Shown here piece by piece: positions 1 to 4,063 of a stretch of DNA of 4,063 nt. Source of the DNA: a plasmid; NCBI RefSeq assembly GCF_057098645.1, contig NZ_JBXSPU010000006.1; one strand, 5' to 3'. Both the position numbers and the translations under genes were made by a program. Under the pieces are notes generated by a model. It worked only from the letters and a program-made list of their open reading frames with translations. It had not been told where the DNA came from and ran no database searches. Every line of letters begins with the position of its first letter. The first letter of the stretch is position 1.

Positions 1-810
1 ACGTAGTGTGTACGAAGTTGCGTTGTCAGGAAGCCCGATATTCAGAAGGTCAGCCACACGGCGGGCAGGCTCTGTCAGCCCTCCGTTCCTGAGTTCGGTG
101 CGGGAAATCTGTATTTCCAGGTTAAGCCTGTTAATCAGACGATTCTGTTCGCCGCGTTCTGTTTCGATACCGCGTGTTTCCATCGCACAGGCAGACTTTC
201 CGAGGTGAATACCAGGCGTTTTCTCAAGCCCCTGTCGCTCGTATGAACGATGGTCTATCTCTTCCTGATAACCGGCGTTCGCCAGTGCCCTGTTTGCATG
301 GTCAGCCCATGATGCCCGCCACGTCTCGGCATGTGTCCGGTCGTTCCAGTCCCTGACCTTTCCGCTGAACCCAGCAGGTCCGATAGCCCTCGTGGTCAGC
401 ATGATGTGCGCATGGGGATTTGTTTTATCCATGTGATGGAACGCCACATCAGCAATCATGCCCTGACTGACAAAGTTTTCTCTGACAAAGGCGAGAACGG
501 TTTCCCGTGCGGCATCCTGCGGCAGTTCGTGGGGGATGGCGAGTTCAATTTCCCGCGCAAGTTGTGAGTTCTTCCGGCGTTCGGCCTTCTCAACGGCATT
601 CCAGAGTTCGGCACGGTTCGTACACCAGGCAGGGGCGGTGGCGGGGGTCAGAATCACAGCCTCAGCCACACCGCTTTTGCGGGTGTAGTCGTGAGTCAGT
701 CCGGTACGCTCATCAAGCATCAGTGAACCGGAACGATAGGCAGCGGAAGCTACGGCGCTGTAGCCGCTGCTTCTGGAGATAATTTTCATGCTGAGATGAT
801 AAATCGCCAT
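1..810 (-). CDS. mobA: MobA/MobL-family (MOBQ) relaxase, N-terminal relaxase domain; partial, ORF runs off the left window edge
   Basis: Minus-strand frame is open from ATG (plus 810-808) to position 1, 270 codons with no stop (translated by hand). The product starts MAIYHLSMKIISRSSGYSAVASAAYRSG..., with Tyr at residue 25, a His-rich motif NPHAHIMLT, and ...WADHANRALANAGYQEEIDHRSYERQGLEKTPGIHLGK.... These match my recollection of RSF1010 MobA (MAIYHL..., catalytic Y25, HxH motif, ...WADHANRALERAGHDARIDHRTLEAQGIERLPGVHLG...). An upstream in-frame stop lies at 916-918. The gene is absent from the supplied ORF track because it has no in-window stop. No strong Shine-Dalgarno precedes the ATG. Confidence 0.85.
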   Translation of the reverse strand, partial: MAIYHLSMKIISRSSGYSAVASAAYRSGSLMLDERTGLTHDYTRKSGVAEAVILTPATAPAWCTNRAELWNAVEKAERRKNSQLAREIELAIPHELPQDAARETVLAFVRENFVSQGMIADVAFHHMDKTNPHAHIMLTTRAIGPAGFSGKVRDWNDRTHAETWRASWADHANRALANAGYQEEIDHRSYERQGLEKTPGIHLGKSACAMETRGIETERGEQNRLINRLNLEIQISRTELRNGGLTEPARRVADLLNIGLPDNATSYTLR

Positions 811-988
811 TTCTGCCGTAATGCCTTTTTGTAGTTTTCTTTCAGCCCCGCAGGGCGCACACAATCGAAACGGAGTGGAGATTGTATAAGTGCGCACTTC
901 GTGATTTGCCGTGCATTATGCCAGCTCAGTTTTTAAACTACCAGTGACGCGCTAAAATGCGATTTTTCATCGCGCACGGAGTTACATC
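811..988. other. Candidate oriT and divergent mobA/mobC promoter region with MOBQ-like nic-core motifs
   Basis: Intergenic region between divergent mobA and mobC. Plus strand 887-897 reads TAAGTGCGCAC. Minus strand (reverse complement of 852-860) reads GTGCGCCCT. Both resemble the RSF1010/R1162 nic core TAAGTGCGCCCT as I recall it. The two motifs sit in an imperfect inverted repeat: GCGCACACAAT (855-865) and ATTGTATAAGTGCGC (881-895). A -10-like TAAAAT lies at 953-958 upstream of mobC. Confidence 0.5.
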
Positions 989-1243
989 ATGAGCAGAACG
1001 CTCGAACAGAAGATTGCTGATGCTGAGGCGAGATTACAGCGCCTGAAGGCGAAGAGCCGGAGCCTGGACACAGCGCAGAAGGTTGTTGTGGGTGCTGCAT
1101 TGCTGGCAAAGGTCAGAAAGCCGGAGGAGGTGCAGTTGCGTGCCTGGTTACTCCAGTTCCTGAAGGCAGAGGTGACACGACAGGCTGATGTGACGCGCAT
1201 ACTGCCGCTGATTAACGAGCTGGAGGCGCTGCCAGAACAGTGA
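989..1243 (+). CDS. mobC: MobC-like mobilization accessory protein (relaxosome component), 84 aa
   Basis: ATG at 989 with a GGAG Shine-Dalgarno at 978-981 (7-nt spacer) and TGA at 1241-1243. The product contains ...AQKVVVGAALLAKV..., resembling the RSF1010 MobC motif ...RKVLVGAMILAKV... as recalled. Size and position (divergent from mobA across oriT) fit mobC. Confidence 0.65.
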   Translation: MSRTLEQKIADAEARLQRLKAKSRSLDTAQKVVVGAALLAKVRKPEEVQLRAWLLQFLKAEVTRQADVTRILPLINELEALPEQ

Positions 1244-1499: not shown

Positions 1500-1590
1500 C
1501 GTTAAGTTTTTAAGATCTTATTTTTAGATCTTTTTTTTTAAAACCTTTTTAGGTCTTGTAACACCATGATTTTAAAGATGTTCTGGCAAG
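1500..1590. other. AT-rich region of oriV (candidate DNA unwinding element) with two AGATCT (GATC) sites
   Basis: Strongly AT-rich, with T-runs (e.g. 1531-1539). AGATCT occurs at 1513-1518 and 1526-1531. It lies between the DnaA box and the iterons. Confidence 0.5.
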
Positions 1591-1594
1591 ATAA

Positions 1595-1678
1595 GTGGAG
1601 CTTTTGGGGGTGAAAGGTGGAGCTTTTGGGGGTGAAAGGTGGAGCTTTTGGGGGTGAAAGGTGGAGCTTTTGGGGGTG
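1595..1678 (+). repeat. Iterons: three perfect tandem 22-bp direct repeats (GTGGAGCTTTTGGGGGTGAAAG) plus a fourth 18-bp partial copy; RepA binding sites of oriV
   Basis: Perfect copies at 1595-1616, 1617-1638 and 1639-1660; partial copy at 1661-1678. The repeats are contiguous with no spacers and lie about 100 bp upstream of repA. A 22-bp unit is roughly two helical turns. Confidence 0.9.
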
Positions 1679-1687
1679 TAATCCACA
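1679..1687 (+). promoter_or_regulatory. DnaA-box-like sequence TAATCCACA (8/9 to consensus) abutting the last iteron
   Basis: TAATCCACA at 1679-1687 has one mismatch to TTATCCACA. The iteron array would then be flanked by DnaA boxes. Confidence 0.35.
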
Positions 1688-1698
1688 GAAAAAGGGGG

Positions 1699-1728
1699 TT
1701 GCAAAAAAAAAACTTCCACCCATATGAT
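1699..1728 (+). promoter_or_regulatory. Candidate sigma70 promoter of repA
   Basis: TTGCAA at 1699-1704, an 18-bp spacer, then TATGAT at 1723-1728, about 50 bp upstream of the repA ATG. Confidence 0.4.
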
Positions 1729-1755
1729 AAGTGGCGTACAGTAAAAAAACGCCAC
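1725..1755. promoter_or_regulatory. Candidate RepA operator: inverted repeat GTGGCGT / ACGCCAC overlapping the repA promoter, with an iteron-like half-site GATAAGTGG
   Basis: GTGGCGT (1731-1737) and ACGCCAC (1749-1755) are inverted repeats separated by 11 nt. GATAAGTGG (1726-1734) matches the left end of the first iteron (GATAAGTGGAGC at 1590-1601). Rep_3 initiators commonly autorepress through such sites. Confidence 0.4.
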
Positions 1756-1776
1756 CAATAGCAACGAGCAAGCGAA

Positions 1777-2725: not shown

Positions 2726-4063
2726 TCACTGTGACCAACCGCGATCATGTCTCCTCTCGGTGGTGTGTGTTCGTGCATCTTCCTCGCGCTGCCATTCCTC
2801 CCAGGTACGATTAAAACCCAGCGAGCGGAACAGATGATCCGGCTGTTTTTCTGGTGTGTTGACGGCAGCAAAAAGCGGTGCCTCACGGGTTTTCAGATGA
2901 AACTGCATCAGTTCTGGTGCAGGTGATATGTGGCTGTCTGCATCGTGATTTACGGCAACACCATACCCTGCATACCGTAACCCCTTATCGGTCAGCGCAC
3001 TGATGACCAGATGCCTGTTATCGGCTGAGGGAACGGCAAACGCGGGATACAGCGTACCATTAAGCCGGATAACACCGCCCAGAGAGTCATCCACGCCCAT
3101 GACCAGCAAAAGCTGAAGCTGGCGGGTTTCCCGGTCGACAGAACTCATGACCGGCATCAGCGTCGGTGGCAGACGTCCCTGCATAAAATCCACCTTCCTT
3201 GCCGCTGGTGATGGCATGGCTGGCTGGCGGTCTTCTCCAAGACAGAAAGACTCCGGCCATGTCTTCGGCTGGCGGAGATTGCGGGTATGTTGCGGCCATG
3301 TCTGGCAAACCTGCGTCAGCAGTTGCTCAAAGGTTGCAGAGGAATAAACACGTTGCAGTGGCGGACGTTGGCCGATTTCGCTTCGGTCACAGATATAACC
3401 ACTCCTGTCACGCATTAAATCAACACTCTCAAAGATTCTGGTGCGGTATTTCTCCAGCTCGTTCCCCCAGAGCGTATATTCTCCGTTCCGGTTGTGAAGC
3501 AGAAGGTAACAGGTCATTTCCCCGTTACCAGGCATGGGAGCCTCGCCATACCCCGTAACGACTGCTCTCAGCACCCCTGAATCCATAACGGCATTGTCAT
3601 TTTTCCTGAGCTGCTCCGCGCGACTACGTTCAGTATCTTCCTGTTCCTTCCGGCGCAATTCCTCTTCACGTTTAAGCAACTGGGCTCTGAGAGCTGCAAG
3701 GCCGGATTCCCCCCACTGCTGCCACTGTTTTTCAAATGCCATCTGACTCGCGGGAATGTCCTGTTTCTCCACCTTCCGGTAATGCTGTCGTAATTTTTCC
3801 ATTTGCTGGCTCAGAGACTGGATTTTTCCCTGCTCACTACGGTATTCCGGTGCCGCCCATTGCATCAGGGGAATACGGGAAAAACCGGACGAAAACGGCG
3901 ATGATTTTTTCAGGCTGGCAGCATGGCTCATCGCTTCCTTTCGTTCGGTGTTCAGCTCTTCCCAGCGTCTGCGCGTCGCCTGCATATCTGCCATCATCGA
4001 CATGGCATTACTGGTGAGTTTCCATGCCGAGTTACTGTCCTTCGGCAACGCTTCGATAATGTC
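2726..4063 (-). CDS. mobA: Long ORF with complete 3' end and frame open to the right window edge; most likely the C-terminal ~445 codons of mobA continuing across the junction of a circular molecule, otherwise a 5'-truncated gene of unknown function
   Basis: Minus-strand frame has no stop from 4063 down to TGA at 2726-2728. E. coli-like codon usage (CTG-rich). The supplied track starts at a TTG at 4048, but five further sense codons (DIIEA) precede it up to the edge, and no in-window ATG has a convincing Shine-Dalgarno. The last codon at the right edge (4061-4063) and the mobA codon at the left edge (1-3) are both complete, so on a 4063-bp circle the two ORFs join in frame (...SYTLR|DIIEALPKDSNSAWKL...) into about 715 aa. 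The N-terminal ~150 residues of this part are charged and helical (e.g. LLKREEELRRKEQEDTERSRAEQLRKN); the remainder is globular with no Walker A or other motif I can recognise. Confidence 0.6.
   Translation of the reverse strand, partial: DIIEALPKDSNSAWKLTSNAMSMMADMQATRRRWEELNTERKEAMSHAASLKKSSPFSSGFSRIPLMQWAAPEYRSEQGKIQSLSQQMEKLRQHYRKVEKQDIPASQMAFEKQWQQWGESGLAALRAQLLKREEELRRKEQEDTERSRAEQLRKNDNAVMDSGVLRAVVTGYGEAPMPGNGEMTCYLLLHNRNGEYTLWGNELEKYRTRIFESVDLMRDRSGYICDRSEIGQRPPLQRVYSSATFEQLLTQVCQTWPQHTRNLRQPKTWPESFCLGEDRQPAMPSPAARKVDFMQGRLPPTLMPVMSSVDRETRQLQLLLVMGVDDSLGGVIRLNGTLYPAFAVPSADNRHLVISALTDKGLRYAGYGVAVNHDADSHISPAPELMQFHLKTREAPLFAAVNTPEKQPDHLFRSLGFNRTWEEWQREEDARTHTTERRHDRGWSQ

Follow-up and report, generated by a model that had tools for sequence, protein, structure and literature searches.

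A MOBQ relaxase gene divided by the linearisation of a small circular E. coli plasmid

mobA on a circular plasmid

The window, a stretch of 4063 nucleotides of plasmid DNA that was analysed over its whole length (contig NZ_JBXSPU010000006.1, assembly GCF_057098645.1), carries parts of one relaxase gene at both of its ends. The gene, mobA or mobQ, whose product is called MobQ in RefSeq, lies on the minus strand. Segment 1 of its coding sequence (1..810) comprises codons 1-270 with the relaxase domain, and is recognised by its open frame, by the profiles PF03389 and NF041496 and by identity with the N-terminus of WP_001029354.1. Segment 2 (2726..4063) holds codons 271-715 and the stop codon TGA at 2728-2726, and its assignment rests on the phase shared with position 1, the joined translation and the contiguous junction. 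Divergent from mobA on the plus strand, mobC (989..1243) encodes an 84-aa relaxase accessory protein (PGAP, WP_000091746.1). We identify the 178-bp region between the two genes (811..988) as oriT, as it has the same length and position as the mobC-mobA intergenic region that acts as oriT for MOBQ4 plasmids (PMC6856555). A gene for a replication protein lies at 1777-2478.

Why does mobA appear to have a beginning but no end? Read on the minus strand, 1-810 gives 270 codons without a stop, the first residues being MAIYHLSMKIISRSSGYSAVASAAYRSG. A sequence-only reading of this DNA had stated that the gene has no stop in the window. This is true of the linear sequence, in which none occurs between 810 and 1, but on the circle the TGA at 2728-2726 closes the gene: the reading phase carries over from position 1 to position 4063, and the frame ...TSYTLR|DIIEALPKDSNS... 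runs on to that codon. The joined CDS measures 2148 nt, fills 53% of the plasmid and encodes 715 aa, identical to WP_001029354.1 and WDA85543.1; its translation equals the PGAP proteins of three rotated records, and RefSeq annotates an origin-crossing mobQ in NZ_CP054167.1. The cut-off appearance of mobA comes from the point of linearisation, which falls within the gene. When the minus-strand frame was compared with two diverged relatives, substitutions at codon positions 1/2/3 numbered 25/23/76 and 35/25/111, an excess at third positions that is the signature of purifying selection on the mobA frame.

Could the window instead be a fragment of a larger replicon, with mobA continuing past position 1 into sequence that was not supplied? 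The lack of a stop in the linear reading would fit such a fragment. However, the window is matched over its entire length by no fewer than 13 circular E. coli records, each of exactly 4063 bp. When the full window is compared with 4063-bp E. coli plasmid records, coverage is 100%, each time in two pieces, as expected of a different rotation. Rotation and one SNP are all that separate the window from five of these records, and across the junction 4063|1 its last 60 and first 60 bases are contiguous in 5/5 same-length records. The frame, moreover, is unbroken across the join and yields the annotated 715-aa protein. We regard the fragment as refuted, with a vanishingly small probability left to it, unless the source molecule happens to differ at precisely the junction from every record that matches. 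Opened inside mobA, the window is an entire circular E. coli plasmid of 4063 bp, and on sequence grounds this plasmid is of the cryptic mobilisable MOBQ41 (pIGWZ12-like, Rep_3 iteron) type. The single SNP lies at 2392, where the window has G and the five 4063-bp records have A; in rep, codon 206 is thereby GCT in the window and ACT in those records, so that the window encodes Ala206 instead of Thr.

The list of open reading frames that accompanied the window leaves out any ORF running off a sequence end. The sequence-only reading had found mobA missing from this list, which holds for the N-terminal 270 codons but not for the C-terminal 440, since these are listed as 2726..4048 on the minus strand. 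This 440-aa ORF is the C-terminal part of mobA, and its TTG start is artefactual. Taken at face value, a self-standing ORF with a start of its own could mean two genes, a short relaxase (1-810) and a separate 'conjugal transfer protein' (2726-4048). The protein database does contain many separate 'partial' entries for each half, and the halves differ in evolutionary rate, the N-terminal domain being highly conserved and the C-terminal part only ~39% identical between Q41 and Q42. Yet none of the rotated records has a stop between the halves, for which PGAP gives a single CDS of 2148 nt. The 'partial' entries derive from contigs of ~4.07-4.2 kb, that is, from linearised plasmids, and no internal start was found that is both conserved and preceded by a Shine-Dalgarno sequence. 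We consider two genes highly improbable. It is very likely, taking all parts of the statement jointly, that the minus strand of 1-810 represents the N-terminal 270 residues of a 715-aa MOBQ MobA from a circular MOBQ41 plasmid, with its start at ATG 810-808 and its stop at 2728-2726.

Five plus-strand ORFs are listed over the 1-810 region (8-208, 174-356, 331-567, 507-782 and 536-688), and the only minus-strand ORF listed there has 52 aa and lies in a frame other than that of mobA. The plus-strand ORFs had been dismissed as spurious, and we came to the same view: these short ORFs of 8-782 have no Pfam match, and 4/5 are disrupted, by loss of the start or by new stops, in one relative or more, so that we rejected them as real genes. 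The fifth, a 50-aa ORF at 536-688 (plus strand) antisense to mobA, keeps its ATG and is open in both diverged relatives, likewise with no Pfam match. Its openness is probably due to chance within the most conserved stretch of the relaxase domain.

The linearisation split of mobA is systematically present in public annotation. Hundreds of protein database entries named 'MobQ family relaxase, partial' or 'conjugal transfer protein, partial' come from ~4.07-4.2 kb contigs of the same plasmid family, and the PLSDB gene table omits mobA where the gene crosses the record start. A general caution about stop-delimited ORF calls at sequence edges, raised earlier for this DNA, was well placed; the specific lesson is to join the ends of circular replicons. 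In small circular replicons an apparently truncated end gene should first be tested in this way, which here unites a 270-aa fragment with a 440-aa ORF that had lacked an explanation, giving one known relaxase of 715 aa. The plasmid backbone is frequent, being present in 397/5426 complete E. coli genomes at >=80% coverage, and consistent annotation is therefore useful for plasmid typing. The gene, its family, its motifs and oriT are all annotated and published already, and biologically nothing new is established here.

Relaxase domain and start codon of MobA

Comparison of the 270-aa translation with MobA/MobL family members, proposed earlier as a check, returned strong relaxase-family matches. 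Pfam MobA_MobL (PF03389) was matched with an E-value of 2.5e-73 and 247 bits against a cutoff of 26.7, and the full protein matched the NCBIfam MobQ equivalog NF041496 with 264.1 bits against a cutoff of 200, residues 1-193 aligning with positions 1-197 of the 197 in that profile. Among solved structures, the best match was the NES relaxase (4HT4, E 5.9e-28), followed by the minimal relaxase domain of R1162 MobA (2NS6, E 1.6e-11). Both PDB alignments begin with residue 2 of the query opposite residue 1 of the chain, and Y25 is in register. By this homology, the minus strand of 1-810 encodes the whole HUH relaxase domain of a MOBQ-class MobA.

The motifs of the family are found at their expected places on the minus strand. 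Motif I holds the putative catalytic nucleophile, Tyr25 (codon at 736..738), whose counterparts in the alignments are Y25 of 2NS6 and residue 25 of 4HT4. Motif II, E87-I-E89 in REIELAIP (544..552), aligns with E74/E76 of IncQ MobA. The His triad of motif III (406..438), made up of H125 (436-438), H133 (412-414) and H135 (406-408), aligns with H112/H120/H122 of MobA. In MOBQ4 relaxases, Y25/E87/E89/H125/H133/H135 have been named via structural superposition with 2NS6 (Garcillan-Barcia 2019, PMC6856555). The proposal that Tyr25 is the likely catalytic residue, to be checked by aligning the Tyr and the His triad, is borne out to the extent that Y25 aligns with the catalytic Tyr25 of R1162/RSF1010 MobA and the triad is present. 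All of these residues are invariant among the three MOBQ4 relaxases aligned. Opposite Tyr25, the crystallised 4HT4 chain has a Phe, and we take this chain to be the inactive Y25F mutant. For catalysis by Tyr25 in MOBQ4 relaxases the published basis is the structural superposition, and no mutagenesis of this residue was found in the literature; we infer the same role for Tyr25 of the present MobA.

Where does the protein begin? The start had been placed at the ATG at 810, and homology, PGAP and the length of the intergenic region all agree with it. In the alignment of the window with pEC20-5 (a diverged MOBQ41 plasmid) and pPSJ-42_7 (MOBQ42), the ATG at 810-808 is invariant, and MAIYHLSMKI opens all three MOBQ4 proteins. 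All rotated records examined carry a PGAP start at this very codon. The published 178-bp mobC-mobA intergenic region corresponds to 811-988 exactly, which also implies a start at 810. The sequence-only reading had matched this start to the N-terminus of RSF1010 MobA, and correctly so: the RSF1010-type MobA of an actual IncQ1 record, found with an oriT oligonucleotide, likewise begins with MAIYHL.

Upstream, nevertheless, the frame meets no stop before 918-916, and two possible start codons occur in it, a GTG (897) and a TTG (864), both inside oriT. No canonical Shine-Dalgarno sequence precedes ATG 810, the best anti-SD duplex (-3.2 kcal/mol) being formed by an AAGG 14-17 nt upstream; the assignment of the start therefore rests on homology and conservation. 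Scanning 780-1020 for promoters and terminators gave nothing. Could translation begin at the GTG or the TTG, or further inside at the Met8 ATG (789-787)? Just upstream of the ATG, between it and the GTG and TTG, pEC20-5 has an 8-nt deletion, which breaks the frame and so excludes the upstream in-frame starts, while the ATG and the residues after it remain invariant. The upstream segment is itself the conserved oriT nic core. The family profiles and both crystallised domains all align from residue 1-2, IncQ MobA opens with the same six residues, and a start at Met8 would cost a conserved N-terminal strand. These other starts are extremely improbable, and we retain the ATG at 810-808.

The C-terminal half of MobA and known systems

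In sequence, the closest characterised relatives of this MobA are the MOBQ4 relaxases and the staphylococcal NES, rather than RSF1010 MobA. From the pIGWZ12-like MOBQ41 plasmids (pEC147-4, pE2022_4, pSE11-6 and pIGWZ12; PMC6856555) the window shows no difference of substance, and from the same-length records it differs by the SNP in rep. Common to them are the Y25/E87/E89/H125/H133/H135 numbering, the 178-bp oriT, a divergent mobC, Rep_3 iterons, a size of ~4.06-4.09 kb and an enterobacterial host. WP_001029354.1 is listed as the MOBQ41 (group 1) relaxase of pEC147-4 (Table S2 of PMC6856555); the MobA of the window is identical to it and thus belongs to the MOBQ41 clade, which has been described as cryptic pIGWZ12-like Rep_3 plasmids of ~4 kb from Enterobacteriaceae (PMC6856555).

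MOBQ42 comprises ColE2-type colicin plasmids such as ColE9-J and is represented in our comparison by pPSJ-42_7 (Col156). Its members share the relaxase domain, the MAIYHLSMKI start, a near-identical oriT and the domain order. The MOBQ42 relaxase is 55% identical to the MobA of the window overall, but only ~39% in the C-terminal part, and the replicon differs, being ColE2-like; colicin operons are described for these plasmids (PMC6856555). NES of the staphylococcal plasmid pLW1043 (4HT4) matches over residues 2-190 with its motifs in register; unlike the present MobA, it comes from a Gram-positive conjugative plasmid and has an unrelated C-terminal domain. RSF1010/R1162 MobA (IncQ1, MOBQ1) has the same first six residues, Tyr25, acidic pair and His triad, the oriT core TAAGTGCG is common to both systems, and IncQ1 and the window share the synteny mobA(-)/oriT/mobC(+). 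It is nonetheless distant (E 1.6e-11) and carries a C-terminal RepB' primase that is absent from the MobA of the window. RSF1010 also has mobB overlapping mobA in another frame; in the window no same-strand overlapping ORF exceeds 73 aa, and none is annotated.

What, then, is the C-terminal half of MobA, if not a primase? Residues 271-715 match no Pfam family and show no primase or Toprim signature. Within them, residues 435-704 (2762..3571, minus strand) form a module in common with the extreme C-terminus, ~300 residues, of SogL and SogS of IncI1 plasmids (R64, ColIb-P9). By BLASTP, MobA 435-704 is 45% identical to SogL 947-1244 of 1255 (E 3e-72), a segment that lies beyond the DUF5710, Toprim (Toprim_3, 266-365) and LPD7 (775-862) domains of Sog. 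These N-terminal domains are absent from MobA, and the two proteins share a non-catalytic tail, not a primase. We therefore rejected the C-terminal half as a primase of either the RSF1010 MobA or the SogL type: the Toprim and primase signatures are missing, and the similarity is to the Sog tail alone. A "low homology to SogL primases" is all that the 2019 paper mentions for MOBQ4 relaxases (PMC6856555), and since the match is confined to SogL 947-1244, this published homology refers to the non-catalytic tail of Sog.

A search with tblastn found the C-terminal module in ~2000 mostly conjugative plasmids, and the homolog search found it only in MOBQ4 relaxases and Sog-type proteins. The Sog tail is present in both SogL and SogS, and both are transported into recipients (PMC6112013). 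MOBQ41 plasmids are mobilised best by the MPF_I helpers IncI1 R64drd11 and pCTX-M3 (PMC6856555); R64 encodes Sog, and pCTX-M3 encodes the Pri primase, which is related to Sog. The preference of MOBQ4 plasmids for MPF_I helpers makes a role of the module as an adaptor, or in translocation, a reasonable hypothesis. We tentatively suggest, from these sequence comparisons, that residues 435-704 may act as a portable unit for recruitment or translocation, perhaps with a sub-domain of OB-like fold that binds ssDNA, and that this unit would adapt a MOBQ relaxase to type IV secretion systems of the I type. This link between the module and the preference for MPF_I helpers was not drawn in the 2019 paper (PMC6856555). 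The same paper reports that MOBQ4 relaxases strongly prefer oriT in cis, whereas RSF1010 MobA works in trans (PMC6856555).

An internal in-frame start in mobA, giving a second product as with SogS or RepB', was rejected as well. Only M447 and M564 are preceded by a Shine-Dalgarno-like sequence, and M564, the best candidate, is replaced by Thr in both relatives.

oriT, mobC and the replication region

Across Q41 and Q42 plasmids, the columns of 811-988 are 91% identical. Within this region the plus strand can form a hairpin at 861..885, with the arms ACAATC/GATTGT (861-866/880-885) and a 13-nt loop. The arms of pEC20-5 carry a compensatory change, to ACAAAC/GTTTGT. The hairpin ends 1 nt 5' of the nic core. 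This is the arrangement of the oriTs of MOBQ relaxases, an inverted repeat and then the nic core TAAGTGCGCCCT, here with 1 mismatch, and the oriT of RSF1010 is laid out likewise. The consensus nic region of MOBQ is NWACCNNTAAGTGCGCCCTYNN (PMC3832669). At 887..899 of the plus strand the window reads TAAGTGCGCACTT, which agrees with TAAGTGCGCCCTY at 12/13 positions (chance expectation 0.10 per window). In RSF1010 the nick falls directly after TAAGTGCG, as TAAGTGCG/CCCT (PMC4814116, Table 1); by analogy only, the corresponding site in the window is TAAGTGCG/CACTT, which predicts a nick between 894 and 895 on the plus strand.

The choice of strand needs some care. AAGTGCGCACTT in the nic core is a perfect 12-bp palindrome, and the minus strand also matches the consensus, with 2 mismatches. 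Because the palindromic core matches on both strands, the nicked strand is assigned only from the position of the hairpin and from synteny: in the IncQ1 record, nicking occurs on the strand that has the sense of mobC and lies antisense to mobA, which is the layout found here. As a separate observation, the plus strand of 845-905 can fold into a longer stem (arms 849-860/890-901; -12.4 kcal/mol, z -2.85), inside which the predicted nick site would be buried.

No Pfam or NCBIfam profile matches the 84-aa MobC. The protein has been described as lacking homology to other relaxase accessory proteins, and mobC as a non-essential enhancer of mobilisation, its deletion having an effect of 0.6-1.5 log (PMC6856555).

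How might the plasmid be mobilised? Reasoning from the family, H125, H133 and H135 would hold a divalent metal, and MobA, together with the small divergent MobC, would bind the hairpin in the 178-bp oriT. Tyr25 would then attack the phosphodiester bond of the predicted nick on the plus strand and form a covalent bond with the 5' end. The relaxase-DNA complex would pass to the helper plasmid's coupling protein and type IV secretion system, IncI1 R64 being the best helper in experiments, and the strand would be rejoined in the recipient.

Downstream of mobC lie the elements of replication. An AT-rich stretch (1507-1550) precedes four perfect 22-bp iterons, GTGGAGCTTTTGGGGGTGAAAG, at 1595-1678, upstream of the Rep_3 gene, whose product contains the Pfam domains Rep3_N and Rep3_C. 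The iterons and the AT-rich stretch are a pIGWZ12-type oriV. One RefSeq record, NZ_JBRETQ010000007.1, has a partial 'hypothetical protein' across the iterons (1538-1776, minus strand), which corresponds to an 88-aa ORF with a TTG start and is probably a spurious call on repeat sequence. A fourth, 'hypothetical' gene is mentioned for MOBQ41 backbones (PMC6856555).

Between mobC and the AT-rich and iteron region we observed an element of ~58 nt at 1253-1311 (CCGCTCGCCGCAGCC...GAGCGAGGAAGCGGAAG). It recurs with 80-90% identity in at least 5000 plasmid records, from small Col to large conjugative plasmids, and is never annotated. It may resemble the stretch with primosome assembly sites that lies downstream of the ColE1/pMB1 origin.
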